Assembly (NCBI GenBank): GCA_002269645.1
Contig: NIVC01004549.1
Location: forward strand, 1-42,289
DNA from: Macrostomum lignano
Lineage: Eukaryota
Direction of reading: 5' to 3'
DNA: 42,289 bases
The position numbers were made by a program, and so were the translations under genes. The number at the start of each line of letters is the position of its first letter. The stretch's first letter is position 1. Of this stretch, positions 2,095 through 37,696 are shown piece by piece. The notes under the pieces were generated by a model, which did not search any database, was not told the origin of the DNA, and was given only the letters and a program-made list of their open reading frames with translations.

Positions 2095-5664
<3,570 letters not shown>

Positions 5665-12589: not shown

Positions 12590-15565
<2,976 letters not shown>

Positions 15566-16114
15566 ATTAAGGGTCTGCAGATGCATTTAATCTATAATCC
15601 TGACGGGTTATGATTTTAAAAAACCACGGCTTCTAAATCCTGTCCTGACCTGCCGCTGCAGACACTGAAGCAAAAGAATTAAGTGCAGCGCCTAAGGCAA
15701 ATTTATTAAAGCAGAGCACTCGCGATGCACAATGCGCTCGCAACCTTCCTCTGGAACGGCCTATTCAGCTCAGCACTCGCAGCACGATAGTCTGGCATGA
15801 TATAAGCTGGCAAAGAGAAAACTGCTTTGAGTTCGTAATCACCCCATTCTACTGATCTCTCGAACCACCCAACTAACTACCCGTATTTCTGCCTCACAGA
15901 CAATAAACAATCCTAGCTAGAATGCAACTCCATCTAGCATATTACTCAAAACAGACCGAGCACAGTACTGCTGGTTGCCCCCGGAAACCGTAGAGACTGG
16001 ACAGCGCTCGCCTCTGCAGGAAGGCTGGCAAAGCAATGTGCTGGCTTGAGAATAGCGAGCGAGCAGAGATAATTACTGCTTGAGGTTGAGCTGAGCTCTC
16101 ATAACCACCGCTCA

Positions 16115-19623
<3,509 letters not shown>

Positions 19624-21131
19624 TTACCAAGAGTCGGTCGGTACTATCAATAGTGACAACTTCAGTTAATGAATTATTTGGATAGAAGCTTTCATCATTA
19701 ATATCATCTAAAATAAATCAGCGAGACAAATCGGGTATTAATTGGTTAGACAGAAACAGCTAGCAAGTTGATTCGGTGCATTTAATTGGGCAACCGTACT
19801 CGTATGTTTTTCTTACAGAAAGCGTAATCGTTTTTCTGCGAAAGCAGACAGCAGCAGAAGATCATTTAAGAACGAAGCTAGAATACGGAACGTAACATGC
19901 AGTAAATAGTGGACCAGCAGCCAATATAGAAAATTTATGCAATAAATTTGTAAATACCAGCAAGTATTTATGTATTCAACTACAGTCAATAACTGTTAGC
20001 ACACACTAAGTATTCTGCTAGGTACTGACGAATGTGGATTCAATTTAAAACTTACAGGCAGATACCTCGCTATTAAAATTATGCAAAACTGTCAATACAG
20101 TTAGGAAAAATCAACTTATTCACCGAATTCATAACAGTCAGCTTTGCTAAGACGGCTGAGATCGCACAGAGAAACACGCGCAGTGATTAAAACATTTGAT
20201 CCGAAACGAAAAATCGATAAGAGCACAAAGATACAATCAAGGACTACGAGTACGTACTCAAGTAGAATGACGTGGAAGGATGTTTCTTCAAAAAAATTAA
20301 GAAGGCAGATTTTATGAAAAAAATACGTAAGAATGGAGGCTTTTGTCTTTTTCAACACAAAACATTTTACTGCTTTTGATAGGCAGCAGACGCGATGAGC
20401 AAAGTACATGTCCTGTGCCTAGAATCATAGAAATGGCACAGCTTGACCCAGCCGGTTGTGTAAAAGAATGTGCCGCAGAACGGCACAGGACAGGTACGAA
20501 TAGACAATAAACTAACATAGAATCATAACTTTCAAAAACGAAAAGCTCCATGAATGACAACAGAGCTATAAGAAATATCGAAAAATAAACATTAGGTCTG
20601 CCCTCCTATCAAAGCAATAACAAATTTTGTGTAGAAGAAATGAAAATCTTTATTGTCCGTAATTTTTTTTCGTAATACCTAGTTTCTAAAATTCTCCAAG
20701 AAACACTTTCCCGTCCTTTAAGAATTCAGCTGAGAATGCTCAAGACGACAGGAATCAGTCACCTTGAACAAATCGAGAGGTTTGCTTTTCAACATTAATC
20801 TTATGTTGGAACGGGTGTTCTTGGATGGCTGCAATCTTTTAGTACAATCCTTTTTGGCTTTCGAGTATCGAGGTTTTTTTACTGAAGCTTTTTACTCCGA
20901 ATCATAATCTAATCGCCACAAAAGAGTTTAAAACAATAAAAACTGGACATTCGAGTGCAAGCAGTTGCAGTTGCAAGTTGGCGGTTTTCGATTACCTGAG
21001 GGAAAAGTTTCTAACGCGCCGTGTGAGCTCGCGCTATTTCGACTCTACTAGAACTAAATTTTTGTAGCTAAATTAGACCGAAATTTAAATTCGTGTGAGA
21101 TATGTTAAACAGTCCGTCAATAAACAGTTAA

Positions 21132-23408
21132 TTAACAGGTTAGCCAGAGCATAAAGTTTTTAAGCACTACAAAAAACTTTCCCGCAGTTTTTCCCTTTCC
21201 AGTAGCCCTTTGAAACTGCCATTTTTCCTGAAGACTCGATTTCAGCCAACTGGGAAGATCTGCTTCCTTCAGTCTCTTGAATATTTCCAGAGTCTGCTCT
21301 AGATTCGAAGAATAAAATGCGGCGACCAGCAGCTCCTTCTCATCCGAGTCCTCTCTCTCAGCCACATCCCGGATCCAGTCCTGGGCGCGCGCTTCTGGAT
21401 CAGTCCGCAGCTCGAGCCGCAAAGCCCATAGCAGAGCGTCAAAGTTCATATAGAAAATAGTTACTGCCTGACAACTGAAGGGGAAAGCACTCCCTCAGAG
21501 CTCCTGTCAGGAATTCGAGTTTCGGTCGCTGGTCGAACTTAAAGCAGAACTTCCACGCCGAGTCGCAGCTCCTCAGATGCCGCATCACGAACTCCACTGT
21601 CGCTTCAGTCGCCGACTTCCCACGAGACCAAGCAATGCCTCTGCTCACCGAGTGACCTGAGTACAAGCTCACGACTCTCTCTGCAGTTCCTCGGTAGCCG
21701 AACTTCAGGCAAGCTAGCGCTCTGAGAGCCTCCCGAGCTGAGAGGGCACAGTCTGGCAGTCTGGCTATCAGCTCTGTAAGCGATTCCTGAGATCGCGGGC
21801 TGCAGTCACTGTGTGAGAGACGAACAAGACACTCTCTCACCACGTCGTAGATCTGATAGTACTCGAGAGCACTGGACTTCGTGATGGGCATCGACCTCAG
21901 ATCCGGCAGAATTTGGAACGGGTGGAAGTAGAATGTGCCTGAGTCGCTCACAGGTCTGAGACTACCGATGAACTGCTGAAGAAGTTGTGGCAGCCGATCT
22001 ACTACTGTTCTCAGTGTGCTCATGATGCCATCCAAATACTGGTCCACTCTCTCCTTGTCTGCACCCTTGAGGTAGATGGCCGCATCGCTGAGAAAGAAAT
22101 GATTCATGATAACCCGAGATTGGTCAGGTGTGTCAGGTGTTTGTCTGTCATGCTCTCGGCTCTTCTCCACACAGTCGAGCAGCATCTGCAGCGACTGTCT
22201 CGTGAGGCTCACGAGGTTCTCCTTCTTCCATTGCTCGACCGGCGTCTCGTCCACCATTCGGAAAGTGACGGTCTTCACGTGGTAGGACTTCAAGCCTTGC
22301 TGATTGAAACCATCCTTGTGACAGATTAACTTCTTGACCAGGTATTTGAGTGTGACAAAAAGTTGACCTTGCAGGGTAGTAAGACTTCGCAGCATCCGGT
22401 TCTCCAGGAAGGTGGTGCTCACGCGGAGCTCTTCGCCCCCTCGGTCAGGAGAGGCTGCGTGCACCACGTGGCAGGGCAATGAAGCCGAGGTGAGAACCTT
22501 CCGAAGGGCCTCCAGCACCGGATGGGGGATGTTCGAGACGCGGTTTGGCAGCAGCGGCGCGATGGGTGGGTAGCGACAGAGACGGCCTGCTGAGACATTG
22601 TCCAGCGCTGGTCTCAGCGTGAATCCGGGTACCGCATCGGCAGGATTGGAGGCTGTAAAAGCGATTCGGTTCCCGGTTGGGCAATAAACAACTTTAAGTC
22701 TGTGGAGTGATATTTTGGACTGATTTGGAAGATTAAAATTCAAATATAATTGTTGCTCATATTTATTACCTACTCAAAAAGACACATATAAATGCATGTT
22801 GCCAATTTCTTTTCTGTGGGTGTTAGCCATTTAATACTCAGCAGGTTCGATACATCCCTAAATGCTGTGCGTTGCAATTACTTCAGACTGAAGGATAGTA
22901 GTCAGGTTCTTGTTTAGATCTACTTACTGAGTTCAGAAATCGTGCATACAGCGATATTTTCTACACCAGTGCTTTACACACGAAAAGCAAACATCTGCAC
23001 TGCCAGAATCTCCAGCAATCGGGTAAAAGAACTAACAGACCATCTCACTTCCGAGAGAACTCACCGAATCCTGAGCACTGAATGTGCCCATTCACCAACT
23101 CGTGCTGCGCCGGAGCTCCATCGCACTCGCACAGGCCTCTCTGGTGGTATTCTCGGCCGGGAATCAAATACATCACATCAATGTCGGAATTGACGTCAGT
23201 TCTGCCGTCCAGTGTCGTCAGACTGTTGCCCCAGCCTTCTGAGTAGCTGCCGACGACAAAAAAGTCATCGTCGTTCATTCGACTTCTTAGAATCTGCTGC
23301 AGGGCATCGGCAGCCGCGCTCTGCAATGCGGCTCGGGATTCGGTGAAGCCTGACTGCTCCCGTGCTGAGTGCAGCTGCTCGCTCAGCTCTGAGTCACTGG
23401 GACTGAAT
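21132..23408 (-). pseudogene. Mab21/cGAS-like receptor (cGLR) nucleotidyltransferase part of an ANK-cGLR gene; exons 23408-23065 and 22652-~21132, frameshift near 21455
   Basis: VVGSYSEG...SDIDVM NTase motif, EELRVSTTFLE, LKYLVK, LKSYHVKT and MNHFF Mab21 motifs. Splice sites join in frame. A 1-bp shift breaks ...NYFYMNFDALLW. Confidence 0.8.
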
Positions 23409-24339
23409 CTAAAATGTAAGTTGTTGGTAAAAAACGGCACTTCTAGAAGGGTTAATTGACTAATTTGTGTAGCATGGGGCAGAACTCCTGAACAGATAAA
23501 AATGTTAATGCAGAAACTTTTTGAATTGCATGGGGAGTCGGAAAAGGTTGACTTAGCGAGGATTTTAGATTTCAGATTCAGCCCTGGAGGTGGGGTGGGG
23601 CAGGCCAGAGATATGGTGGCGGCGGGTCAGAGGTGGGTGGGGCAGGCCGGAGATAGTCCATAGGGTTAAGCGTATAAGACTTGGGGCTGAGTGTCCATGA
23701 CCCAAGGGCAAATGTCTATAGGTTGAGTGTCCAGAGCGAATGTCTACAGGATTTGTTACTGAAAAATGGTCCAATTCCATGACTGCCCATGTATCGAGTG
23801 TCTTTTTATATGGTTGGGAGAGAACTTTTTTGGTCCAACCGTCTTGGTCTGAGTGGTCTAAGTAAAGTAATGTAATGAAAGCAACCTGATTGGCTGACAA
23901 TGCCCAATTATTGGGAATGGCGGCAGATGGGGTCCTGAATTCCAAATTTACATTGCATTCACTCCCGCAAACTCTGTGAACAGTTGCACAGCCTCCGAGC
24001 CATCTCCAGTGTGCCCACCCCACCTCCAGGTCCTCCTCCTCGCTGGTTGGCAAAACAGCGAAGTAGGGCAGTTAGAACTTTTCCTACTAGTGCGCTGAAA
24101 TCAGCAATGTCAAACCCATCTTGACACAGCGTTCTGCAAGCTCTCGTTTTCGACACTGTTTGTATGCTGTTCCTACTTTCAAAACTGCCTCTTAAGGCGG
24201 CTTGCTGGTAAAATTGCACAACTTTTTCAAACGCGTAAAAATCTAACCGAAAAATTATTTTAAACAACATTTTACTAGCGATGCAAATAAAAATCGCCTA
24301 TACAGCACTCTAAACGAGAAGAACGCCACATACTCGCAC

Positions 24340-24787
24340 CTCTCAAGTTCCGACTGATCGATTGGTTCTTCCAAAGCGGATGATTTAGCCACTTCTTGAC
24401 TATCAATATATTCTATTTTGGCGTCAGATACTGCTTTGATAAGTGACTTCACAATTTGATGGTGATCATTCATTAATGCAGCGTCCAGAGGTGACTCGCC
24501 AGTGTTTCGTTGGAGATTGACGTCAGCTAGTGCTTTGATGAGTAAGTTCACAACTTGTTGTTGGTGACCAAAATGTGACGCAATGTAGAGAGGTGACGAA
24601 CCATGAACATTTTCTTGAAGATTAAGGTCAGCTTCTGCTTTGATGAGCGAGTTCACAACTTTGTGGTAGCCATTCTGTGATGCAATGTACAGAGGTGAAC
24701 TACCTTGAATTTGCTGAAGATTGAGGTCAGCCTTTGCTTTTATGAGTGAGCTCACAACTTGGTGGTGACATTCTGTGATGCAATGTA
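24340..24787 (-). pseudogene. 3' part of the ankyrin-repeat exon (repeats ~8-11), interrupted by the Polinton
   Basis: SPLYIASQNG...VVNSLIKA repeats. Donor AG|GTGCGA at 24340/24339 is phase-compatible with the acceptor at 23408. A 1-bp deletion lies near 24770. Confidence 0.8.
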
Positions 24788-25720
24788 ACTACGTAATGTG
24801 CAGTTAGAGCAGGGTTTTGGAGGTGAGGTGGGTGTCAGAGCCAATGCAAATTCAGCGCCTATCTAAATGCACTAGACCTCTTCTAATTGGTCCAGAGTCA
24901 TTATGTGAGATATGCATGTAACTCTCATGTAAATCTAATTGTACATGTAATCAGTGTACACTGTGTCGTACAGAAGCGAGGACCAGTAGTACGCATAATT
25001 AGCGCTCCGCCGTTGTTGTACGCACAAGCGCGCCCAACCCCGCAGCATTGGTGTACGCAGAATTAACTGTCCATATTAACTGTCCATATACCAAAATTGG
25101 CAGAATGGTAGCGCCCACCCACCCCATAACTGTCCATATTACTTGTCCATATATACACCCAAAATTGGCAGAATTGTAGCACCCACCCACCCCATAACTA
25201 TGCATATTTACTGTCCATATATGCACCCAAAATTGGCAGAATTGTAGCACCCACCCACCCCATAACTATCCATATTTACTGTCCATATATGCACCCAAAA
25301 TTGGCAGAATTGTAGCACCCACCCATCCCATAACTATCCATATTTACTGTCCATATATACATCCAAAATTGGCAGAATTGTAGCGCGCCCACCCACCCCA
25401 TAACTGTCCATATTTACTGTCTATATATACATCCAAAATTGGCAGAATTGTAGCGCGCCCACCCACCCCATAACTGTCCATATTTACTGTCCATATATAC
25501 ATCCAAAATTGGCAGAATTGTAGCGCGCCCACCCACCCCATAACTGTCCATATTTACTGTCCATATATACATCCAAAATTGGCAGAATTGTAGCGCCCAC
25601 CCACCCCATAACTGTACGCGCAGAATTAGCATCCAAGAAGATATTCTGTTGCCCCTACAAAATTGGCGGCCCCCGCGCGCGCGCATGATGAGTCAGCCGC
25701 TGTAAATCGCTGCTGTCCAC
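24788..25720 (+). repeat. Left TIR (933 bp) with 8 units of a 68-70-bp tandem repeat (~25066-25615)
   Basis: Reverse complement of 35520-36788 apart from array copy number; unit AAATTGGCAGAATTGTAGC..CCCACCCACCCCATAACT..CCATATTTACTGTCCATATAT. Confidence 0.95.
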
Positions 25721-25889
25721 ACTGTTATATCCACTCCTTCCATATTTCAACCCCTCTAGAATTCAGCCCTCGTCGACTGCACTCCGAGACAATTACGTCA
25801 TCCTCAACCCCTCTCACCCAGAGTCAAATAAGTTTTCAAAAGGCGTATATTTACACAAAAAGCCGGCCGAGCTTTGATACGTATACGAT

Positions 25890-26519
25890 TTATTTAGCAT
25901 ACACAATTGGGTGACGACCCAAAACGTTTGAATAATAGCGAGCAGGAGCATTTTGCAAACAGTTTACAATCAAGTATGAGTAGGGGTCGCGAGTAGCATC
26001 CTCATACGTTTTGACAAAACTTTTTGGATTAGTGGGGACAAGCTGCCTTGCAATATGAGACACTGTGCTGGCATCCCGTACATTGCGGAATAAAACGAGG
26101 TAGTTCGAATTGAGCGACTGAGTTCGGTGCTCCTTACCCTTTGCAAACAGGTTTTGCACAAGATACCAAAGTCGGTACCCGACGTGGGAGACTTTGCGCG
26201 TGAAAAAAGTTGTAAAAGCGCCACTCTTTTCCATGGCATGCATTTGGTCGTCGACGACAAGCAGAATATTTGGTTCAGGGACATATTGTTCAGGGTCAAA
26301 TGTACACGAACGAAAATTTACAGGGTACGGCAATTCAAACAGTTCAGGATCCGGATAGTGGCCAAACCAGTCTACGCGAATCGGCTTCGGATCTTGAAAA
26401 AATTCTTGCCTCAATAGGTTTTTCACAAGTGTGGTCTTGCCGCTTTGAGCCACCCCAGCAAAAATTGCCGACGTTTTGGGGGCAAATTTTAAAGAGCCGG
26501 GGTCTATTGTTTGATACAT
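25890..26519 (-). CDS. DNA packaging ATPase (FtsK/A32-like), 209 aa from MYQT
   Basis: Walker A GVAQSGKT, Walker B LLVVDD, FTRKVSH / QN / RNVRD motifs typical of Polinton ATPases. Confidence 0.9.
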   Translation of the reverse strand: MYQTIDPGSLKFAPKTSAIFAGVAQSGKTTLVKNLLRQEFFQDPKPIRVDWFGHYPDPELFELPYPVNFRSCTFDPEQYVPEPNILLVVDDQMHAMEKSGAFTTFFTRKVSHVGYRLWYLVQNLFAKGKEHRTQSLNSNYLVLFRNVRDASTVSHIARQLVPTNPKSFVKTYEDATRDPYSYLIVNCLQNAPARYYSNVLGRHPIVYAK

Positions 26520-26542
26520 TTTGATAGGCCGCCCAATCATAT

Positions 26543-26992
26543 TTATGGATGATGCTGCTTTATTTGTAGACAGTGATTCTGCACCATCAAGTCGTTCTCA
26601 TAAAGATTTTTGCTATAACAGTCGCGCAATATTTTTTCAATCGGCAGACACTCCAGAAAGTGTTTTTCAGCCACAAATATTACATGAGCCCCGCAGGTCA
26701 CACTTAGCTGATGCTGTACAGGATGCCGGTTCATGGCCACCTCCACAGGGACATACTTTGCGATCCACAACTTTAATAAATCTGGCACAGGATCAATACA
26801 CAAGGGGTCAAAAAATGTCACGCTCTCATCGGCATGAAGACAAATCAAAGCCCAGTGAGTGCCTGGTAGATTGCCAGTGTCAAAGTTAATCACGTATGCA
26901 GCAGGATAAACAGGCTGCGGAATCCTGTCAACTGGTGTTACTCGAACAGGGACAGGCAGTATTAGACGTTCTAATATATCTAGACTATTCAT
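26543..26992 (-). CDS. Adenovirus-like cysteine maturation protease, 149 aa
   Basis: YVINFD...GTHW (His), FFDP (Asp), QHQLSVTCG (Gln/Cys). Confidence 0.92.
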   Translation of the reverse strand: MNSLDILERLILPVPVRVTPVDRIPQPVYPAAYVINFDTGNLPGTHWALICLHADESVTFFDPLCIDPVPDLLKLWIAKYVPVEVAMNRHPVQHQLSVTCGAHVIFVAEKHFLECLPIEKILRDCYSKNLYENDLMVQNHCLQIKQHHP

Positions 26993-27042
26993 ATCGGCAT
27001 GAATATGGCCGTTATTCGGGAATAAAAAAGAGTTGTTTGTTT

Positions 27043-28326
27043 CTACACGTAGTCTAGAATAACCTGACGACCGCGAGTGATTTGCACAGTATTGTCAAAG
27101 TAGCCAAACACCAACACGTTGATTCCTGCGGCCAAGGCAGCAGAAAACTTTATTTGTAGCGTCAGATTCCCTCGCTCGCGAGGCATGCTATGCCCACCCA
27201 GCTCCATGTCGGGCATGAGATTCCAGGCGAAGAAGCAGTAGCCAGCTCCATAGTCGGAATATGATACGTCAATATCCAGGTCCCGATTCATCTTTCCTAG
27301 GCTTTTTAGTAGCATAGCATACTCGCGAGCATAGTTATGAACACCAAATCGAGGAGTAAACGGTTGTCCACACAGACTGACTCCGTCCTTATACAGAGCC
27401 ACACTGTCGGCTCCAAATGGCTCAAAATTAAACGGGTTATGTGTAGCCACACCGTTGTAAGCGCCGCTGTTTACCATGCCAACAACCACAAGTTTAGGCT
27501 TTTGTTCAGGAAATATATTGTTGATTGACATGTCCCGAACACCACCAGCCACTGAAGTATTGTGCACAACAAGTCGCTCAATCGGATAGATTGCATTCTG
27601 TTTGCCTAGTTGTTCTTCAATCTCCAATGCCAGTTGAGGGTTTGCCTTGACGCGGCGCACATGTAGTTTGGCACTCTCGAGTACCAGCCGCGCCTCAACC
27701 CCGTCCGCGTGGTTTTTCAAAACGAAGCCGGAATTGTGCATAGTTAGCGTAATTACCATATCAGTGTATGGCAACAGCATTCGGTCGTTGGTAACAAAAA
27801 ATTCTAAACTAAGAGGTCCATAAAGGTGAAAGGTGCGTGAGTTTGCCGCCATCGCCTTGCGGGCTACAAAACCAGGATTTCCAACCACAGCCATTTGACC
27901 TCCAGCGTCCTTTGCGTAGCCCATCATCCTCAGTTGGTTGGTTTTTGAATCGTGTCCGTAATTCAAACACGTGCGAATATAGGCCTTGTAAGCGTGGTTG
28001 TTATTGCTCGACTCTACGTGGGTCCCGTTGATTGTCAACGTGACGTTTTTAAACATGCTTTCAAGGACGTAATTGACCGGCGCAACATTCGAATCAGCAG
28101 CAAGATTTGTGCCATTAGATTGCCTAACGCGGGCCTTAATCTCGAGGTCAATGTCGTTAAGATCGATAAACGTCTCACCACCAACAATCCTAAATTCGAC
28201 CACGCTGGCATTTTCAACACTGGCAACAGGGTGAACTTCTTCAGTGGTGGCGTTAATTGCAGCAATTTGGTGTGCGCGAGGAGCAAATAGCTCGAATTCC
28301 GACTTTGTACACAGGCACTCAGTCAT
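27043..28326 (-). CDS. Major capsid protein (double jelly-roll, hexon-like), 427 aa
   Basis: KSEFELF start, EFRI...FIDL, VNYVLESMFK, YKAYI, NPFNFEPF, YCFFAWNL and GNLTLQIKF are characteristic Polinton MCP motifs. Confidence 0.9.
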   Translation of the reverse strand: MTECLCTKSEFELFAPRAHQIAAINATTEEVHPVASVENASVVEFRIVGGETFIDLNDIDLEIKARVRQSNGTNLAADSNVAPVNYVLESMFKNVTLTINGTHVESSNNNHAYKAYIRTCLNYGHDSKTNQLRMMGYAKDAGGQMAVVGNPGFVARKAMAANSRTFHLYGPLSLEFFVTNDRMLLPYTDMVITLTMHNSGFVLKNHADGVEARLVLESAKLHVRRVKANPQLALEIEEQLGKQNAIYPIERLVVHNTSVAGGVRDMSINNIFPEQKPKLVVVGMVNSGAYNGVATHNPFNFEPFGADSVALYKDGVSLCGQPFTPRFGVHNYAREYAMLLKSLGKMNRDLDIDVSYSDYGAGYCFFAWNLMPDMELGGHSMPRERGNLTLQIKFSAALAAGINVLVFGYFDNTVQITRGRQVILDYV

Positions 28327-28357
28327 TTTTCTTTCAACAGCGGCTAAGAGTGGTGCT

Positions 28358-28747
28358 CTAATAGACAGATCGATTATTGACGCGGGTTTTTTTATCTATA
28401 TTTATAGAGTCAAAAATATCAGAATGTTGGAGTCTTTTTCTCGTTTTTTTGTTAGTCTTCTTTCTACGCCTTTGACCACCGCCGCTACCTCGTTGTGTGA
28501 CTGTGTCTTTGAAAGCATCTTTAGCTGCCCGGACAGAGTTGCGCAATGCCGCTTCTTTCAAGTTCCCGCCTTGATCGAGTGTGTCGCTAACTGTTGTAGC
28601 TAGGGCTCGTGTTCCGTGGCGAAGAATATTTTTGCCAAAACTCTTTAAAATTGGCAGGGCAAATCGGGCAATGCTGCCAAACAGTCCGTTGCCTCGCTGT
28701 GCACCGGAAAATACCGGTAAAGCTCCTCCGATCAAGATTGAAGGCAT
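28358..28747 (-). CDS. Basic virion core-like protein, 129 aa
   Basis: QRGNG and QRGSG motifs, LIGG protease-type site, amphipathic segment, R/K-rich C-terminus; lies between minor and major capsid genes. Confidence 0.7.
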   Translation of the reverse strand: MPSILIGGALPVFSGAQRGNGLFGSIARFALPILKSFGKNILRHGTRALATTVSDTLDQGGNLKEAALRNSVRAAKDAFKDTVTQRGSGGGQRRRKKTNKKTRKRLQHSDIFDSINIDKKTRVNNRSVY

Positions 28748-28791
28748 ATTGCTGATGAATTGTGGTCTTTTATTTGTGAAAACTTCTTTAT

Positions 28792-29946
28792 TTATAGCTT
28801 AATTTCACGAATGTTGATCGATAAAACAGTTTTACCTCGAAGAATCCGATCCATTAGCTTGCCCATATCGTCACAGATTTGCACCTCAATGGTTTTAAAT
28901 GGGTGCTTCACCAACGGTAAGTATGATGGATTGACAAACTCGTAGTACTCTCGTTCACCGTATACCTTTTCATTCAAAGGAATTGCACCAAGCAGGGGGA
29001 CTTTGACGTCTCCAACAATGGCAGAGTCGACAATGTTTGAATAGATGTACATAGTTTGTACACCATTTGTTAAATCGATTGGTCGTTTAGCGGTCTTTGG
29101 AGTTTCATTAAAAGAATCATCTTCACGAAAGCCGAGAATGGCAGCAAGCTCACCAATTTCAAATAAAATGTTTTCAATGGGTTTGTACTCACACCGGTTC
29201 AGAAAAGGGTTGTAGCTGAATGCATCCACTCTCGTTGCTGGACTTATTGGGAGCTTTGAAACGACGCTCCAAAGCGCTCCATTAACATAATTTAAGAGCT
29301 CATTGGGCGTGCGGTAGAATCCTTTAGCAATCCGCAGTGACGTTCTACTAGGCCAGACACTTTTTTCAAACGTTAGAGTCATGGGACTCTCTATGGAGGA
29401 GGATTCCAATTCTATAGCGAATACTAACGAATTTCTTGGGTTTAGTAAAAAACTCGTTCCTTCGATATTTGATTTATTTCCAGCGTCATCGACCTTTTTA
29501 AACATGCTGCGCACATTACTGGACAGCCTAATGTTCGTACCATACCATGATTTGTTCACAATCGAAATTTGGCCTTCCTGTGAACGCTCAATGCAAATCA
29601 TTGCATTATCGTCTTGCTCATATTTTAGAGCTGCAATGATTGCATCAACCACTTCGTTGGCTGTTGATAGCCCCGCGGGGAGAGAAGCCGACGCAAACTG
29701 CCTATACGTGGAGGCGGGTTTTTCTCTAACTTTAATGTCAATCACTTCATCCTCGGGAGCGTTGGTCAGGACATCAACCATTCGATTATCAGGGACGGTT
29801 TTGAATTCTTTACAAAAGTAGATCCGTTCGATGCAGACTTCATGATTCGGAAAGTGGAGGGTGTCGGGCAAATTAATGTTATAATGCGCTGAATTATTCT
29901 CAGGATAGTGCTTAACGCACGCATTGCTAGGTAGGAAAAGATGCAT
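28792..29946 (-). CDS. Minor capsid protein (penton-like), 384 aa from MHLFLPSN
   Basis: LFLPSN...YPENNS...INLP..L..EVCI N-terminus and MYIYSNIV...VGDVKVPLL...YLPL...IEVQICD C-terminus. Confidence 0.85.
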   Translation of the reverse strand: MHLFLPSNACVKHYPENNSAHYNINLPDTLHFPNHEVCIERIYFCKEFKTVPDNRMVDVLTNAPEDEVIDIKVREKPASTYRQFASASLPAGLSTANEVVDAIIAALKYEQDDNAMICIERSQEGQISIVNKSWYGTNIRLSSNVRSMFKKVDDAGNKSNIEGTSFLLNPRNSLVFAIELESSSIESPMTLTFEKSVWPSRTSLRIAKGFYRTPNELLNYVNGALWSVVSKLPISPATRVDAFSYNPFLNRCEYKPIENILFEIGELAAILGFREDDSFNETPKTAKRPIDLTNGVQTMYIYSNIVDSAIVGDVKVPLLGAIPLNEKVYGEREYYEFVNPSYLPLVKHPFKTIEVQICDDMGKLMDRILRGKTVLSINIREIKL

Positions 29947-29986
29947 TGTAATATACCACACGTTTCGACTGTGCGTGTGTGTGTGT

Positions 29987-31054
29987 TCATCCTTGTCTTA
30001 TATTTATAACTTCCTCAACTGGTACAAATGCATTGAACGACTCGGGATAGCCGCGCCAACTAACGAAATGATGAGCAACACCATTGATGACGACATTGCG
30101 ACGCAGAATTTTGTCTATAACAAAGCGGTCCGGTCGAACCGTCTTTGAAAGTTCATTATAGTAGAATCGACCCTCGATTTGTTCTCCAGATAGGTCGGAA
30201 ATGCGATAAAAATGAGGTGGTCCCGGGCATACTTGAGACACAACGTAAACTTCTTCGCTGTACATATCGTATGCTTCCTTGTCAAAGGCTCGACGAGATT
30301 TTGAAATTCTGACAAAGTCCCCTTTTTTGTAAACTGGTTCATCATATTCAGGATCCTGGTAGAGCTTTTCCCACAATTCTTTTTGGTTGTGCAGACCGAC
30401 ACTCGAAGGTTTCATATCAATAGTAGAGTGTACTGTGTTGTTGTAACTTTTAACCAATATTGGCAAATAGTCAATCCAGCGCCACGTGTTTTTGTGCTCA
30501 AAGTAGCGAGCTAAACGTTTTCGGAGAGTCCTAATCAACCTTTCAGCCATATTTGCCTTGTATACAGAGTTTGTGCTGTACATTTTGATACTGTTGGCTT
30601 TCAGTAAGTTCTGCATGCGATTGTTATAAAACTCGGTACCTCGATCAACGTGTAGATATAAAGGCTTAATAGGGAAGTCTTTGATCATGCTTTCAAAAGC
30701 CTTTGGAGTGTCGCTTTTCAATTTTATTGGCTGACAAAAAGCCAATTTACTAAGCACGTCAATTGCAACTAGAATATATCGATGACCATCATTCCATTGT
30801 TCGTATCGTGACATGTCCATCAAATCCGCTTGCACAGTTTCCATGAAGCCTCCTGACATTACTTTTCCGGTTCGGAATTTTCTTTTAACCCTCTTGTGCC
30901 GGGTGTAGCTCGATTGGGTCTTCAGCCATTCGTCGGTTTGGCGTCTCGTCAGGGAGGGGGCCAGCCGTTTGGCCTCCTGATATACACGGGCAGCATTTGT
31001 AAAAGCGGCGTCTCCCTGTTCGTACACTCTCCGAAGAGCGGTTTTCACCCTCAT
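29987..31054 (-). CDS. Retroviral-like DDE integrase with C-terminal chromodomain, 355 aa
   Basis: QADLMDM (D), HVDRGTEF (D), MAERLIRTL (E); chromodomain IDKILR...VSWRGYPESFNAFV. Confidence 0.95.
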   Translation of the reverse strand: MRVKTALRRVYEQGDAAFTNAARVYQEAKRLAPSLTRRQTDEWLKTQSSYTRHKRVKRKFRTGKVMSGGFMETVQADLMDMSRYEQWNDGHRYILVAIDVLSKLAFCQPIKLKSDTPKAFESMIKDFPIKPLYLHVDRGTEFYNNRMQNLLKANSIKMYSTNSVYKANMAERLIRTLRKRLARYFEHKNTWRWIDYLPILVKSYNNTVHSTIDMKPSSVGLHNQKELWEKLYQDPEYDEPVYKKGDFVRISKSRRAFDKEAYDMYSEEVYVVSQVCPGPPHFYRISDLSGEQIEGRFYYNELSKTVRPDRFVIDKILRRNVVINGVAHHFVSWRGYPESFNAFVPVEEVINIRQG

Positions 31055-31187
31055 TCGCAACTAGAGTCGATGCACAGCATGAGTAATTACACTTGAACTC
31101 CACAGACGGTTTGTCTGAGCAAAGCTTTGAAGTTACAGCTGCGGCACCCATGATCCAAAAACAGATTATAAATCATGAAAATGATTT

Positions 31188-31841
31188 CTATTTATAGTTT
31201 TTTAACGTCTCGTATTTTACTGCTGGTTTCTGCCGCCTCTTTGGTTCGCGAAGTTGGTATGAAGCATGCCTGTAGGCATCGCTGCCACGATCTTCAAATT
31301 TTTTAACTTCATTCAGGCCACTGGCTCGGTCTTTGTGGAAGTCGTTGTGGAAATCACTAGTTCCAATTGCTTGCTCGACTAAAAAATCGTCTCGATCAGG
31401 ATCCGTGCCGACTTCTTTTTTCACACTGACTTCTTCTTGTTGGCGTCGCCCTAGTAGAGCTTTTGCAATATCTGCCTCTTCAGCCAGGGCCCAAAAAGCG
31501 GTACTATATTTTGGGCTTGGGCGGTCGCGCCTTTCATTCGATGTAATCTTTTTCAGTAGATCGAAAATATTGCTTCCTGGCCAGGTTTTTCCATCAAATA
31601 CAATTTCCCACGACTTGTTGAACTCCAAATTCGGGTATCTTTCTGTCAACATGTCCCAAACTCGTTGTTGTCGTTCAGGAAAACGATTACTCTTCTTTTG
31701 CTTGATCTGACTTAGTTTATTTTGGAGTTGAGTGTTGTATTCAATGAGTTTTTCATATTCTGTTTTAGATGCAATTTCTCGGGGTGCGCCTTGACTCAGT
31801 CTATTAAATTCTTCTTCTGGCACAACAACGTATTTATTCAT
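31188..31841 (-). CDS. Conserved-type Polinton hypothetical protein, 217 aa from MNKYVVVPEEEF
   Basis: M.K.V.VP.E.F start seen in Maverick accessory proteins; ATG lies 1 nt after the corrected stop of the upstream gene. Confidence 0.6.
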   Translation of the reverse strand: MNKYVVVPEEEFNRLSQGAPREIASKTEYEKLIEYNTQLQNKLSQIKQKKSNRFPERQQRVWDMLTERYPNLEFNKSWEIVFDGKTWPGSNIFDLLKKITSNERRDRPSPKYSTAFWALAEEADIAKALLGRRQQEEVSVKKEVGTDPDRDDFLVEQAIGTSDFHNDFHKDRASGLNEVKKFEDRGSDAYRHASYQLREPKRRQKPAVKYETLKNYK

Positions 31842-31842
31842 T

Positions 31843-32198
31843 TTAGCGACCGAGTAGTCCACCAAACAGGCTTGATATTAGCGGTGCAGCAACAGATGCA
31901 AGGATGGGTAAAAACCACCGACTTGAGGGTTCGAGAGAAGCATATTCTTCTTCCTATTTATAGACAATTTTGTGTCTGCCAATTCACGCAACGATCTTCT
32001 GTATCGCTTTAATCGCAGATACTGTTTCGGAGAAAGATCAATATTTCCCCGGAGTACGTTGTGACTCAATTCACAGAGACAATGAATCAGTTCCTTGCCT
32101 GCACCTCGAATAATTGCCCGCCGAAGAGTGGGACGGGCTTTGGCGAGCTCTGCGAGCTCGCCGCGACAAGAACATAGTCTGGAGATTCCGTTTGTCAT
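31843..32198 (-). CDS. Polinton protein with predicted protease-released amphipathic C-terminal peptide; 1-bp frameshift at 31910-31914
   Basis: ELIHCLCELSHNVLRGNI...LKRYRRSLRELA core. Restoring one base in the A5 run gives QVGG-FLPILASVAAPLISSLFGGLLGR*. Confidence 0.7.
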
Positions 32199-32699
32199 TT
32201 TGTTTAGCACAAAGATGTTGGTTGCAGTGCATCGCAATTTATGCACAATATATTTATAGACAAGTTTCATAGCAGCATTACGATTGTACACCAATTTCAG
32301 TGCAGTGGTAATTGACAATAAAATTACACAACATTTGTGACAGCACTAAAAATCCAAAAGCGACTGTGAGGAGATGTTGCTAGGTGTCGAGACGGGTACA
32401 AAACAAACAATGGAGACACGTACCGATTGTGGAACTTCTTAAATTTTACAATGTCTGCTACGGCAGGATCTGTGTTATCAGAGGGTCATCAATCAAATAT
32501 TTTGACAGTTAAAAATCGAAGCGGGGTCAATCAACCCCGCATTACTTTTGTTGCTGCGTGGTGGAACGTGCCGAGTTGGGATTTTGTTGCTTAGGGGTGT
32601 GGCGATAAAATTGCTGCTGCCGCAGGGCAATAAATCAAAAGTTTTTGACAGTGGTCAGAAGCGGTCATTTTCATTGCAGATTTGGCTCAATTTCATTCA

Positions 32700-32971
32700 G
32701 CCAGCGGGGTGCAGCACGAGTGCATTCCGCAGGCCATCCCGAGCGTGGTTGAGCAAGTCAGGCATGGGTAAAACTACCGTGTTTGGGCGGTCCACGCCGC
32801 AGCAGCCGGAGACCACTGATGAGGTTGACACACCTGGTGTGTACTTGGAGATCTCGAACGCTGGACCCTCCTGGTGCGACTACCTCATCAGTGCTCTCCA
32901 GCTGGTGCAGCGGGGCCCGCACAAACACGGTAGTTGGTCTGTGGGATGCATTCGTGCTGCACCCCGCTGGC
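32700..32971 (-). ncRNA. Candidate long hairpin RNA locus (imperfect palindrome)
   Basis: Arms are reverse-complementary about GAGATCTC (32848-32855); a CTATAAATA box lies 60 bp upstream on the minus strand. Confidence 0.45.
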
Positions 32972-33111
32972 ATGGGTGAGCTTGAAAGATGTTTGTTGCA
33001 GTGTACTGCAATTTGTGCATGATATATTTTATTTATAGACAAGTTTCATAGCAGCTTGTACGTACATACAAATTTTGTTAAAACAGTAAAGTTACGCAAT
33101 AGCTATATGGA

Positions 33112-33591
33112 TTAGACATACAAAACGCTAGTCACATGATCGTACATTTGACAGAGCTCTTTAAAGTTTCGTATACCAAGGAAAACAAGGCGACCATTCT
33201 TTCCGCATAATAAACATTTAGCATTGCGAAATGGAGACTTTATTACTATTCCATTGAAAACTTCGCACTCCCACTTCACCCATTGGGACCCTGAGTATGC
33301 AATTTGGAAAAAATTTGGCCATCTGTCTACTTCAGCGCGGTAAGTACTAGTGGTAACAACAACAGAAATTGGTTTACATTGAGGAAAAAGACGCAAAACT
33401 TGGTTGACTGAGCGACAACCGAATACAATTGCAGACAAAGAACGCTGAAAAAAGTTTATTGTACACTTTCCTATCCTCAAATTGATAAGAGCTCTTGGCC
33501 GGCGAAATGTCCGTGCGCTCGCCCAGTCCAAGTCAGGCATGCAGCTCCATTTCGCGCAAAACACTCGGTTCACGCACTCGACGTTCTGCAA
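33112..33591 (-). CDS. Divergent TATA-binding protein (TBP)-like protein
   Basis: LQNV; [15 protein letters not shown]...[19 protein letters not shown]...[15 protein letters not shown] resemble both TBP repeats. The frame starts at TTG; the first ATG is at 33540. Confidence 0.7.
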   Translation of the reverse strand: [159 protein letters not shown]

Positions 33592-34346
33592 GTAGATTTT
33601 TCGGCAGTTTTCTTTACTTTCGTATCCTTCTTGGGGGCTTTCGGTCGCTTCTTTGATTCGTTGGCTGCTACTACTTTCGATTGATGCTGTCGCTTTCTGG
33701 CCTGATTTTTAGGCACCTTTGGCTGCTTCTCCTTGACAAGCTTTGATGGTTTTTTTGCTTTCTTGCTTACTTTCTTGGAGCCTACCTTGATTTTTGGAGG
33801 TGGCGTCCAATAGCAACGGTCGAATGCCTGTTTGGCTTCTTCGACAAACTGTAGCTGTTGAATTTTTGGCATTGCGGTCAAAACAGCGCCTCGAATCACG
33901 GCCGTGTCGAGAGTAAACAGAATCCTGTAATAGCCGCTCTTGTTTTTGTAATCCTCTACAGGCAGTCCGTTTTGGTCGTACATTTTAAAGTCGTGAGCCA
34001 GCCCAAACGCTGCACTGTCGCCTCCAAACGCTGCACTGTCGCCTCCAAACGCTGGGTTGTAGCCCAGAAGAGCTAGACTTTCACTGGAAAGGTGCTCCGC
34101 CACAGTGTTGAAAGTGTAGGGTATGCAGCTCTCAATGTGTTTTTGTGCAATGATGATGAATTCGCGACCTTCGTTGTCAGTACGCACACCTTTGACAATC
34201 AAAACAGGGACCGCATTGGCCAAGTAGAGAGGCCCCTGTTCGTCATATTCAATGTCAAACGTTTCAACCCCGTTGAAGCTCGGACCTCGCGGTTTGAGTG
34301 CCAGCAGCTCTCGCTTGACGCAGTTGAAGTCTTGCACTGTCTCCAT
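33570..34346 (-). CDS. Hypothetical protein, 258 aa: possible OB-fold SSB plus Lys-rich tail
   Basis: Intact ORF with a TATA box 62 bp upstream; beta-rich YRILFTLD...PKIQQLQF end; tandem AAFGGDS duplication; K/P-rich C-terminal ~75 aa. Confidence 0.55.
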   Translation of the reverse strand: METVQDFNCVKRELLALKPRGPSFNGVETFDIEYDEQGPLYLANAVPVLIVKGVRTDNEGREFIIIAQKHIESCIPYTFNTVAEHLSSESLALLGYNPAFGGDSAAFGGDSAAFGLAHDFKMYDQNGLPVEDYKNKSGYYRILFTLDTAVIRGAVLTAMPKIQQLQFVEEAKQAFDRCYWTPPPKIKVGSKKVSKKAKKPSKLVKEKQPKVPKNQARKRQHQSKVVAANESKKRPKAPKKDTKVKKTAEKSTCRTSSA

Positions 34347-34407
34347 GTCTCTTGTCTGTTTAGAAAAATTTGCAGGTACGGGAGCTTGCAGATGCTCCGG
34401 GCTGGTG

Positions 34408-34415
34408 CTTATATA
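34408..34415 (-). promoter_or_regulatory. TATA box TATATAAG (class 1) upstream of ORF258
   Basis: GGGTATATAAGCACCAGCCC, duplicated at 35067-35074. Confidence 0.6.
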
Positions 34416-34440
34416 CCCGAGAGTCTCAATAAGTTTTGTT

Positions 34441-34968
34441 TTAATTACACGATAACGAGCTTTTTACGGTGTTGTCGTTGTCGAGGATTCCAGAAAAAAT
34501 GAACCTTTTGTTCCTATTTTCGGGTGCTGGCGTTGGAGGCGTGCTGAAATCCTTGCTCCAAGTTGATGGTAGTTCAAGCTTTGGCGGCCTGTTTCTCTTG
34601 TGCTTTGGCAGCCAAATCTTTTGTTGCTCCTCCCACGACGGATTATACAGATCTTGATGGTTCCGAAAACGTATTTTTTGGCGATGCTCCTCACTTAGTA
34701 TCGGAGCCAGTAATCTCTCCATTCGTGCTAAATCAGCTTTGAACCTCATTTTGTCCCGTAGTTGCTCATTTATCCTGGCTGCTGCGTAGTCTTGGCTGTC
34801 GTAGGGACCTTGATCAATTTCCTCGACCTTGGCATTGAAGGTGACTAATCGCTCAGAAATCGGTTTGCTGTGGCAAATGCACAACCAGTCCGCAGATTTT
34901 TTCAACGTCTTATATTCGTCTTTTTCCTCGTTCGATAATAGAGGGTAGTCTCTGGAAATCCAGCTCAT
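34441..34968 (-). CDS. Hypothetical protein, 175 aa
   Basis: Intact ATG-TAA ORF with a TATA box upstream; a decayed paralogous copy lies at 35100-35270. Confidence 0.55.
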   Translation of the reverse strand: MSWISRDYPLLSNEEKDEYKTLKKSADWLCICHSKPISERLVTFNAKVEEIDQGPYDSQDYAAARINEQLRDKMRFKADLARMERLLAPILSEEHRQKIRFRNHQDLYNPSWEEQQKIWLPKHKRNRPPKLELPSTWSKDFSTPPTPAPENRNKRFIFSGILDNDNTVKSSLSCN

Positions 34969-35023
34969 TTCTTGTCAAACACTGCGGGATGTTATTTGAG
35001 CTTAGAAAACTGCTGAGAAGCCG

Positions 35024-35270
35024 AGAAAAGTTTGCAGGTACGGGGGCTTGGTGCTCTGGGCTGGTGCTTATATACCCGAGAGTCTCAATAAGTTTTGTTT
35101 TAATTACACGATAACAAGCTTTTTACGGAGTTGTCGTTATCGAGGATTCCAGTAAAATGAACATTTTGTACCTATTTTTGGTACTGGCGTTGGAAGCGTG
35201 TTGAAATCCTTGCTCCAAGTTGTTGGCAGTTCATGCTTTGGTAACCAAAATTGCTTGTCAAACACTGCGT
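35024..35270 (-). pseudogene. Internally deleted duplicate of the ORF175 cassette
   Basis: 35024-35241 matches 34362-34584; encodes WLPKH...ELPTTWSKDF; CGCAGTGTTTGACAAG is shared with the ORF175 leader. Confidence 0.7.
35067..35074 (-). promoter_or_regulatory. TATA box TATATAAG (class 1) upstream of ORF175
   Basis: Second copy within a ~220-bp direct repeat. Confidence 0.6.
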
Positions 35271-35519
35271 TTTCCACATGATTTTTAATTGAACTTGGTG
35301 AATTTAGAAAACGGCTGAGAATCCGAATTTTCTTTATTTATGGTTTGCTGTCTGACAAAATTGACCTGGCATCTTATTAAACGAGAATATTTCATGCATA
35401 GAATTTAGTGTTTTTAGACCTTGATGACGTGTCTGGCTATAAATTTAGCCTTGTGTCTCGACCGGGTTGTTGCGTAACCCTGCTGCAGGTAGCTATAGCG
35501 AGCCGCGCAGGGCAGAGGG

Positions 35520-36788
35520 GTGGACAGCAGCGATTTACAGCGGCTGACTCATCATGCGCGCGCGCGGGGGCCGCCAATTTTGTAGGGGCAACAGAATATC
35601 TTCTTGGATGCTAATTCTGCGCGTACAGTTATGGGGTGGGTGGGCGCTACAATTCTGCCAATTTTGGATGTATATATGGACAGTAAATATGGACAGTTAT
35701 GGGGTGGGTGGGCGCGCTACAATTCTGCCAATTTTGGATGTATATATGGACAGTAAATATGGACAGTTATGGGGTGGGTGGGCGCGCTACAATTCTGCCA
35801 ATTTTGGATGTATATATGGACAGTAAATATGGATAGTTATGGGATGGGTGGGTGCTACAATTCTGCCAATTTTGGGTGCATATATGGACAGTAAATATGG
35901 ATAGTTATGGGGTGGGTGGGTGCTACAATTCTGCCAATTTTGGGTGCATATATGGACAGTAAATATGCATAGTTATGGGGTGGGTGGGTGCTACAATTCT
36001 GCCAATTTTGGGTGTATATATGGACAAGTAATATGGACAGTTATGGGGTGGGTGGGCGCTACCATTCTGCCAATTTTGGTATATGGACAGTTAATATGGA
36101 CAGTTATGGGTGGGTGGGCGCGCTACAATTCTGCCAATTTTGGATGTATATATGGACAGTAAATATGGACAGTTATGGGGTGGGTGGGCGCGCTACAATT
36201 CTGCCAATTTTGGATGTATATATAGACAGTAAATATGGACAGTTATGGGGTGGGTGGGCGCTACAATTCTGCCAATTTTGGATGTATATATGGACAGTAA
36301 ATATGGACAGTTATGGGGTGGGTGGGTGCTACAATTCTGCCAATTTTGGGTGCATATATGGACAGTAAATATGGATAGTTATGGGGTGGGTGGGTGCTAC
36401 AATTCTGCCAATTTTGGGTGCATATATGGACAAGTAATATAGACAGTTATGGGGTGGGTGGGCGCTACCATTCTGCCAATTTTGGTATATGGACAGTTAA
36501 TATGGACAGTTAATTCTGCGTACACCAATGCTGCGGGGTTGGGCGCGCTTCTGCGTACAACAACGGCGGAGCGCTAATTATGCGTACTACTGGTCCTCGC
36601 TTCTGTACGACACAGTGTACACTGATTACATGTACAATTAGATTTACATGAGAGTTACATGCATATCTCACATAATGACTCTGGACCAATTAGAAGAGGT
36701 CTAGTGCATTTAGATAGGCGCTGAATTTGCATTGGCTCTGACACCCACCTCACCTCCAAAACCCTGCTCTAACTGCACATTACGTAGT
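35520..36788 (-). repeat. Right TIR (1269 bp) with 13 units of the 68-70-bp repeat
   Basis: Reverse complement of the left TIR plus five extra units. Confidence 0.95.
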
Positions 36789-37696
36789 AATGTAGAGAGG
36801 TGACTCGCCAGTGTTTCGTTGATGATTGACGTCAGCTTGTGCTTTGATGAGAGAGGTCACAACTCGGAGGTGACCATTCTCTGAGGCAATGTTGAGAGGT
36901 GAGTAGCCATTGACTTCTTGAAGATTGACGTCAGCTTGTGCTTTGATGAGTGAGTTTACAACTTGGTGGTGACCATTCTGTGATGCAATGTAGAGAGGTA
37001 TCTCACCAGTGTTTCGTTGAAGATTAACATCAGCTTGTGCTTTGATGAGTGAGTTCACAACTTGGTGGTGACCATTCTGTGATGCAATTAATGTACAGAG
37101 GTGAGCAGCCATCGTCTTCTTGAAGGCTGACGTCAGCTTGTACTTTGATGAGTGAGTTCACAACTTGATGGAGACCATTCTCAGATGCAATGTAGAGAGG
37201 TGACTCGCCAGTGTTTATTTGTTGATTGATGTCAGCTTGTGCTTTAATGAGTAAGTTCACAACTTGGTGGTGACCATTCTGTGTTGCAATGTAGAGAGGT
37301 GAACCGCCTTGGATTTGTTGAAGATTGACGTCAGCTTGTGCTTTGATGAGTGAGGTCACAACTTGATGATGACCAAAAAGTGATGCAATGTAGAGAGGTG
37401 TCTCGCCAGTATTTCGTTGAAGATTGACGTCAGCTTGGGCTTGAATGAAGATCCCAACAATTTTTACTTTTCCCAATTCACATGCAAAATGAAGCGGTGA
37501 CATTGATGCTGATGAGCCTATCAACGTTAGAAGCTTTCTGCAGGTATCGTGAAATTTTTGTTGCATTTTCGAACATAATGGCTTCCAGGATCTCTTGTTC
37601 AGTCACATCGAGGCTCTCGCTTTGGCTTTCGGACCTGCCGATGGTCTGCATTAGAACTGCTGCAATCGCTGTCAGGGTTCTTAAAAGAGCTTCCAT
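36789..37696 (-). pseudogene. 5' part of the ANK-cGLR gene (start and ankyrin repeats 1-8), frameshifts near 37515 and 37088
   Basis: MEALL... start, then MSPLHFACELG and 33-aa SPLYIASxNGHHQVVxSLIKAQADVN repeats. The sequence continues seamlessly at 24787 once the element is removed. Confidence 0.8.

Follow-up and report, generated by a model that had tools for sequence, protein, structure and literature searches.

A 159-aa open reading frame on the minus strand of a 42,289-nt contig from the flatworm Macrostomum lignano (hereafter, the window) almost certainly encodes a homologue of the TATA-binding protein (TBP), as supported by both its predicted fold and profile searches. The frame lies within a 12-kb Polinton-like element that has no polymerase gene. 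On balance, although with some reserve, we read it as a virus-owned TBP for the late genes on the capsid half of a bipartite Polinton. Table 1 lists the features on which this reading draws.

Table 1. Features of the element in the window and of the polymerase elements elsewhere in the genome (positions are those of the window unless a contig is named)
Feature	Position	Strand	Basis or remark
Left target-site duplication AATGTA, 6 bp	24782..24787	.	
Left terminal inverted repeat, 5′-ACTACG start, ~70-bp tandem units inside	24788..25720	.	arms 98-99% complementary
Packaging-type ATPase, 216 aa	25890..26540	minus	weak P-loop Pfam matches only
Probable maturation cysteine protease, 149 aa	26543..26992	minus	no Pfam match; label from gene order and motif
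Probable major capsid protein (MCP), 427 aa	27043..28326	minus	27-35% identical to matching ORF of polymerase-bearing Polintons
Small basic protein, 129 aa, probable virion core protein	28358..28747	minus	inferred label
Probable minor capsid protein (mCP), 384 aa	28792..29946	minus	no library match
Retroviral-type integrase with chromodomain, 355 aa	29987..31054	minus	PF00665 E 1.7e-7, PF00385 E 0.015
ORF217, weakly common to polymerase-bearing Polintons	31188..31841	minus	ORF list and comparison
ORF130; Met common to sister subfamily at 32198; 3′ end differs from sister subfamily	31878..32270	minus	
Seven TATAAATA words	28399, 28789, 30001, 31189, 31955, 32251, 33030 (span 28399..33037)	minus	word count
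~780-bp extra piece	32264..33043	.	in 4/15 measurable copies
TBP-like frame, two-lobed saddle, 159 aa	33591->33112	minus	ORF translation, profile and fold
TTGCAG: TTG start or phase-0 splice acceptor	33586..33591	minus	matches host trans-splice motif
ORF258: conserved 187-aa domain and variable lysine-rich tail	33570..34346	minus	no family matched
Candidate phase-0 splice donor AAG/GTAGG	33780..33788	minus	25/25 copies, at end of ORF258 conserved domain
GGG-TATATAAG early-type TATA box	34408..34415; second copy 35067-35074	minus	69 nt before ORF258
ORF175, in both subfamilies	34441..34968	minus	dN/dS 0.07
Right terminal inverted repeat, extra tandem units, CGTAGT-3′ end	35520..36788	.	
Right target-site duplication AATGTA	36789..36794	.	
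Polymerase element copies	G000:C1263:48014-58456 (L101/L102); C173:199634-208632 (L099/L100); 7 more		

The initial annotation of this DNA had proposed, from alignment by eye, that both halves of TBP are present, and had overlooked the strand: the plus strand at 33112..33591 is closed, with no open frame. Taken alone, the frame (P0001) had no match in any of four collections (Pfam, the ESM Atlas, PHROGs and PDB sequences), and no relative turned up in three scans of viral contigs. PF00352 was matched by three of the four members of the alignment of the frame with its relatives (alignment A1; best E 8.5e-5), with relative P0004 above the family cut-off (24.6 vs 22.9 bits) and a sister-subfamily copy at 22.8 bits. 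Thirteen of 14 weak matches in a PDB sequence search with the aligned frame were TBP or TBP-like chains, and the A1 profile returned four of 1.84 billion proteins, including an archaeal-type TBP at E 4.2e-4.

Structure comparison gave a stronger signal. An AlphaFold model built from seven sequences (pLDDT 82, pTM 0.63) matched 44 PDB chains at E<=1e-3 by Foldseek, and all those listed were TBP (best E 7.1e-10; TM 0.68-0.79). VIA-align superposed 156 of the 159 residues with a Z of 14.2; its five top rows were TBP, and the best non-TBP row reached Z 6.9. In the viral library, viral TBPs ranked first. The model thus has the two-repeat TBP saddle, which bears out the proposed homology and the presence of both halves. 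None of eight frames queried was present in the exact-match collection.

Compared to cellular and archaeal TBPs (PF00352; 7o4i_O, 4rod_B, 2z8u_B, 1mp9_B), the predicted protein has the same full-length two-lobed saddle, the first Asn, the C-lobe Phe and the TFIIB Glu-x-Glu. It differs in its low identity (16-20%, under the Pfam cut-off when alone), in Thr for the second Asn, in the loss of at least two Phe, in a short N-lobe helix 2, and in having neither an N-terminal extension nor an ATG. For the intercalating Phe and Asn sites we used the names that we take to be standard, mapped onto host TBP. Asn8, Phe112 and Lys118 are retained on the DNA face, as is, probably, Phe48 by two of the alignments. 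Of the four intercalating Phe, two or more have been replaced, with first-lobe assignments differing between two alignments, and the second Asn is Thr; the full set of four Phe and both Asn is therefore not present. Because of these changes, DNA binding by the protein may be weak or altered. The earlier claim that the first-repeat Asn and some Phe are kept, and others replaced, stands for Asn8, Phe112 and probably Phe48; its reading of Asn3 does not, as LQNV had been matched to the TBP strand LQNIV in a register wrong by five residues. It is VNRV, containing Asn8, that aligns with QNIV, and Asn3 is not conserved, being absent from relative P0002.

The C-lobe Glu-x-Glu of the TBP family is retained as Glu108 and Glu110, and all but one of the 27 rows in the alignment have both glutamates. 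Most of the basic helix of the N-lobe is lost, helix 2 being short after Gly58. In the part of PMC7221094 available to us, these C-lobe glutamates contact TFIIB, and an N-lobe basic patch contacts TFIIA, TAF1 and Mot1.

The gene is multicopy. The search for the frame in related elements, suggested by the initial annotation, found 90 rows in the genome, which fall into two subfamilies at ~97% (A1) and ~78% (A2) identity. Between the subfamilies (78% identical), dN/dS of the frame is 0.07 at a dS of ~2, near saturation, alongside 0.075 for the integrase and 0.033 for the MCP. Judged from these substitution ratios, the frame is under purifying selection, like the integrase.

The surrounding element spans 24788 to 36788, with the long inverted repeats and 6-bp duplication of a Polinton, and is inserted in an ankyrin-repeat gene (ankyrin Pfam matches on the right flank). 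Its genes lie on one strand in the order ORF175, ORF258, TBP-like, ORF130, ORF217, integrase, probable mCP, core and MCP, protease and ATPase. The integrase is of the retroviral type found in Polintons (PF00665), and the capsid-module ORFs are homologous to those of polymerase-bearing Polintons; the capsid and protease ORFs themselves have no library match. We presume that the ATPase is A32-like and that the 384-aa ORF is the minor capsid protein, and the protease label rests partly on what we take to be its His/Cys motif. No protein-primed polymerase was found between the element ends, and no RNA polymerase or TFIIB gene was recognized in the 12 kb. Ten copies of this family (family A) were mapped, all with identical gene order and all without a polymerase; the six with both ends have distinct 6-bp duplications. 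The original label of a Polinton-like element therefore holds for the repeats, the duplication and the integrase, but the polymerase is absent, family-wide. Relative to Polintons, Mavericks and adintoviruses, as described in the portion of PMC8502044 available, the element shares repeats, 6-bp duplication, chromodomain integrase, ATPase, and probable protease and capsid genes; it differs in that the polymerase is on a separate element with matching ends. Its ends are 5′-AC, in contrast to the AG ends of other Polinton families in this genome.

Several copies vary around this plan. Subfamily A2 carries a Fic-domain gene (L024:3912-4691; PF02661 E 7e-14) and a 117-aa ORF, both absent from the window copy; an A2 copy on G000:C150 (L025:2432-5131) has its ATPase and right repeat duplicated, and contig C1313 holds a pair of family-A capsid genes that point in opposite directions and are separated by 10 kb. 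Within the ~780-bp extra piece, positions 32339-32695 match, at 72-75% identity, the DNA that precedes the polymerase in the P1 elements described below, and 32661-32962 shows very high contig depth in run X1. The piece may be a small mobile element or may have come from an exchange between the halves. Elsewhere in the window, a host gene with a Mab-21 C-terminal domain (21132-23420; PF20266 E 1.5e-5), possibly a cGAS-like receptor, lies ~1.4 kb from the element's left end. We take 2751-3896 and 7434-9150 to be host exons like class III alcohol dehydrogenase and cytochrome P450. A tandem array lies at 3886-5327 and retroelement-like fragments at 12612-15482, and 16000-20000 is AT-rich with an extreme GC skew, down to -0.99.

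To place the frame among other Polinton TBPs, we considered PF00352 matches across the genome. There are at least 150 rows (150 of 330 candidates scored), 12 of which are host TBP and a TRF2-like gene. Twenty of 21 other sites examined belong to a second family (B), and one to a degraded family C. Intact family-B elements, such as the one on G000:C114 (L050/L051), are complete Polintons in which the TBP is accompanied by a polymerase, a PC4-like gene, an integrase and capsid genes; in this family the TBP gene and the gene upstream of it overlap, in different frames, over ~330 nt. The TBP profiles of A and B/C match at 95.6% (E 1.2e-8). Family D (L103:5243-6549, G000:C2285) has a very divergent TBP-like frame, identical in three copies, which adjoins a deoxynucleoside kinase gene and a polymerase; a search for the ends of this element did not find them. 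Family E (L107/L108/L123, G000:C3469; L097/L098) is a complete Polinton with a different capsid type, and a profile search of L097, L098, L107 and L108 detected no TBP-like frame. Three further capsid families occur in the genome. Outside it, the 4063-bp metagenomic contig L088, for which eight further relatives were found, encodes, in this order, PC4, TBP (E 3e-31), integrase, minor capsid-like and core-like proteins and the start of a capsid gene, and contains TATAAG four times.

TBP is thus a recurrent Polinton gene, present in four families of this genome and in the unrelated metagenomic Polinton L088, which makes its place outside the Polinton core set less exceptional than the initial annotation had thought. 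Most Polinton TBPs have Thr at the second Asn. In the TBP tree, the branch parting families A-D from the rest is supported at 88/92, L088 forms a separate clade, and family D joins A via a flagged long branch; the tree falls short of showing that Polinton TBPs arose only once.

The word TATAAATA, to which the initial annotation had pointed, is strongly enriched in the element, with seven occurrences on the coding strand and none on the opposite one (expected 0.14). Six occurrences lie 49-142 nt upstream of the genes for MCP, core, mCP, integrase, ORF217 and ORF130; the remaining one lies in the duplicated piece. In A2 the word precedes the same set of genes, also where the flanking sequence is different; none was found upstream of the protease or ATPase genes. 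The top word of family B is (C)TTAAGAA, in 5/5 copies, and in two mapped copies 5/8 and 5/9 occurrences of TTAAGAA fall 38-73 nt before a gene start, among them those of several late genes and of the TBP gene. The two words are reciprocal between families A and B (6-7 vs 0, and 7-9 vs 1). Upstream of ORF258 there is a different box, GGGTATATAAG, which also occurs in nine of nine polymerase elements, where a related word precedes genes. Because the second TBP-bearing family uses a different word, we consider the TBP-like protein to be probably the late-promoter factor of its element.

These observations suggest a cascade, in which early genes would be transcribed by host TBP and late genes by viral TBP. 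Host Pol II and host TBP would transcribe the ORF258-TBP unit from the TATATAAG box, and the TBP domain would be expressed as a spliced exon, with fusion to the ORF258 domain as the likeliest route and capping by the host spliced leader as the other. The viral TBP would then bind TATAAATA before the capsid, core and integrase genes and recruit host TFIIB via its Glu-x-Glu stirrup. Because the N-lobe basic helix is cut short, it would probably escape control by TFIIA, TAF1 and Mot1. Against this cascade stand the lack of the TATAAATA word at the protease and ATPase genes and its form, that of an ordinary TATA box.

Two other roles for the protein need to be weighed. It could be a decoy that sequesters TFIIB of the host, or other partners of TBP, and lowers host transcription, with host TBP reading TATAAATA; we take this word to be a canonical TATA box that fits the host consensus, and because of that host TBP could read it. 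The retained TFIIB stirrup and the several altered DNA contacts would suit such a protein. Yet Asn8, Phe112, Lys118 and probably Phe48 are kept on the DNA face, family B has its own TBP together with a non-TATA word at late genes, and the lost part is the TFIIA/TAF1/Mot1 surface (as far as PMC7221094 describes it), which makes for a poor decoy of those factors. We regard this role as improbable, and of the two offered in the initial annotation, the late factor fits better, given the words and the kept TFIIB glutamates, and the dominant-negative mimic worse. The protein might instead have another task on DNA, such as bending the terminal repeats or marking them for integration, packaging or replication, perhaps as a fusion with ORF258, while another factor reads the words. 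The many AT-rich units in the repeats are in keeping with this, as are the natural fusion copy C4486 and the conserved in-frame donor and acceptor, which would fuse the frame to the 187-aa ORF258 domain. However, families B, C and L088 have stand-alone TBPs with their own ATG, beside a PC4-like gene or on an element that carries one, and the correlation of word with family favors promoters, so that we rate this job as no more probable than the decoy.

The late-promoter reading leaves the question of how the frame is translated. It has no ATG ahead of residue 18 in the subfamily of the window copy, nor ahead of residue 149 in the sister subfamily, and gene callers gave five relatives five different starts. 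Because the frame has no initial ATG, the TBP domain is probably a spliced exon, and the conserved splice signals likewise suggest an exon. The candidate donor and acceptor (Table 1) are 196-206 nt apart in A1 and 66-67 nt apart in A2. One of 25 copies (C4486) has the two frames fused in phase and reads as a natural ORF258-TBP fusion. The polymerase elements look intron-split too, with a donor whose codon position P1 and P2 share. The top donor motif of the host is GT[G/A]AG rather than GTAGG, according to the available part of PMC8629364. In four of four runs, which we only guessed to be RNA, contigs crossed the donor-acceptor stretch unspliced, and none of the four joints and none of the 14 loose ends listed, out of 19 from these contigs, fell within it; contigs drop rare forms, so these leave room for rare splicing. 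We hold cis-splicing to the ORF258 domain to be a serious candidate, at a little under an even chance.

Of similar weight, taken together, are two alternative starts, each of them unlikely alone: translation from the TTG and, slightly less unlikely, trans-splicing of the host spliced leader onto the CAG, which would donate an AUG in frame. The terminal AUG of this leader can be used as a translation start. TTGCAG fits the host acceptor motif [T/C]TNCAG, and the host leader ends in ATG (PMC8629364, PMC12582326, as far as their available text goes). No leader-like end at 33585 was present among the loose ends listed, and the conserved upstream donor would compete with the leader. A TTG is found in all 25 copies, which were located by that motif, and the unspliced contigs fit a TTG start; its context, with C or T at -3 and C at +4, is poor for initiation. 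The family D frame, likewise without an early ATG and behind TTTCAG in phase 0, speaks for these alternatives in general. A programmed frameshift from ORF258 was rejected, as the offset is 1 or 2 among copies in which ORF258 reaches the junction and is not fixed. Met18 was also rejected as the start, since it is absent in the sister subfamily and would cut the first saddle strand. ORF258 itself has no match in Pfam, the Atlas, PDB or PHROGs, and its predicted model reaches a pLDDT of only 35; a single-strand-binding protein found no support from these searches or from fold prediction.

The polymerase missing from family A is encoded by a second type of element (PF03175 E 1e-27), of which we examined nine copies, measuring 8.8-10.4 kb between inverted repeats. 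Eight of the nine have 6-bp duplications, and queries for integrase, capsid, ATPase and protease gave no match in any of them; an integrase would therefore have to act in trans. Six carry a PC4-like gene (its match is absent from three of four P1 copies) and one a dUTPase. A genome search for this P-type polymerase, with 142 of 142 candidates scored, gave 108 rows, 35 of them at >=83% identity (P1) and the others mostly P2-like. All of them are more than 40 kb from any family-A row; the nearest is 44 kb away.

The termini of the two types match by lineage. Identity over the first 30 nt is 18-27 for A1-P1 and 17-25 for A2-P2, compared to 9-16 for cross pairs and 6-14 for family B. Elements of A and P start with ACTAC, and nine elements of families B, C and E with AGTAG; two internal stretches are also common to A1 and P1. 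Complementary gene sets are thus carried on molecules with matching termini. Between P1 and P2, pN/pS is 0.32 for the polymerase and 0.49 for PC4, both saturated, a weaker signal than that of the capsid half; this and the missing PC4 match in three P1 copies count against the reading that follows. The family-B polymerase has no match to the P-type at 1e-5. In family B and L088 a single molecule encodes PC4, TBP and integrase, so that A and P taken together resemble this gene set divided in two, an arrangement retained by two lineages. We consider it quite likely that family A and the P elements form a bipartite Polinton. The element in the window would be the capsid/integrase half, a separate family with matching ends would supply the polymerase and PC4-like protein, and the polymerase half would be integrated by the integrase of the capsid half.

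The main alternative is that A and P are independent, non-autonomous deletion derivatives, spread by family B or by a complete Polinton absent from the assembly. Non-autonomous Polintons exist, repeats collapse in assemblies such that a complete parent could be missing, and the PF03175 genome search scored 91 of 974 candidates. Against it stand the same split in two lineages with saturated synonymous sites, the purifying selection on the capsid-half genes, and ends that pair by lineage and differ from those of family B. The absence of P-type rows within 40 kb of family A, in a search that scored every candidate, and the lack of a match at 1e-5 between family-B and P-type polymerases also weigh against it, and we judge this explanation unlikely. 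The fuller statement, of an integrating bipartite dsDNA animal virus with two cognate segment pairs that diverged within a single host, in which each TBP-bearing family has a private promoter word and so an insulated switch on host Pol II, we regard as evenly balanced.

Other viruses encode the TBP fold, among them nucleocytoviruses (ASFV B263R, the vaccinia intermediate factor 8p0j_H, HaV) and herpesviruses, whose vTBP (KSHV ORF24, BcRF1) reads viral late promoters with host Pol II (PMC12529657, in the part available). In contrast to these, the TBP described here is in a 12-kb integrating element in which no RNA polymerase or TFIIB gene was recognized, and it keeps the TFIIB glutamates that have diverged in the viral TBPs covered by the available part of PMC7221094. 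As for Polintons, the accessible text of Starrett et al. has TBP only as a gene label in legends to figures, for elements out of datasets of non-animal eukaryotes (PMC8502044, 10.1101/697771), and the one supplement file searched gave no match to TBP. A term search did not find TBP in PMC11071308, PMC10748475, PMC11131425 or 10.64898/2026.06.19.733378, and PMC10675990, in the sections available, places TBP in mirusvirus-like repeats and not in its Polinton-like viruses. In the literature covered, which included few subscription papers, we found no report of animal Polinton TBPs or of bipartite Polintons.

Bidnaviruses and the Drosophila Vesanto virus have a parvovirus-like capsid, unlike the element studied here, which keeps the Polinton capsid module. 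They are the nearest cases to a bipartite Polinton, with a Polinton-type polymerase and segments with common terminal repeats (available parts of PMC4061559 and PMC8363768). Both are described as ssDNA viruses, and the Vesanto segments are 3-6 kb long (PMC8363768, in part), whereas the halves here are 9-12 kb and integrate with 6-bp duplications.

Polintons lack an RNA polymerase with which to time the expression of their capsid genes. A TBP encoded by the element itself, together with a family-specific word, offers a direct and testable answer to how this timing could work, one that parallels the herpesvirus late switch in a 12-kb element, and families A and B, each with a TBP and a word of its own, lend themselves to a natural swap test. 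The definition of a Polinton includes a polymerase and an integrase on one molecule. A stable division into complementary halves, if true, would give this group a genome plan new to it and would serve as a genomic model of the origin of segmented relatives such as bidnaviruses, and surveys demanding both genes on one element would overlook such families.
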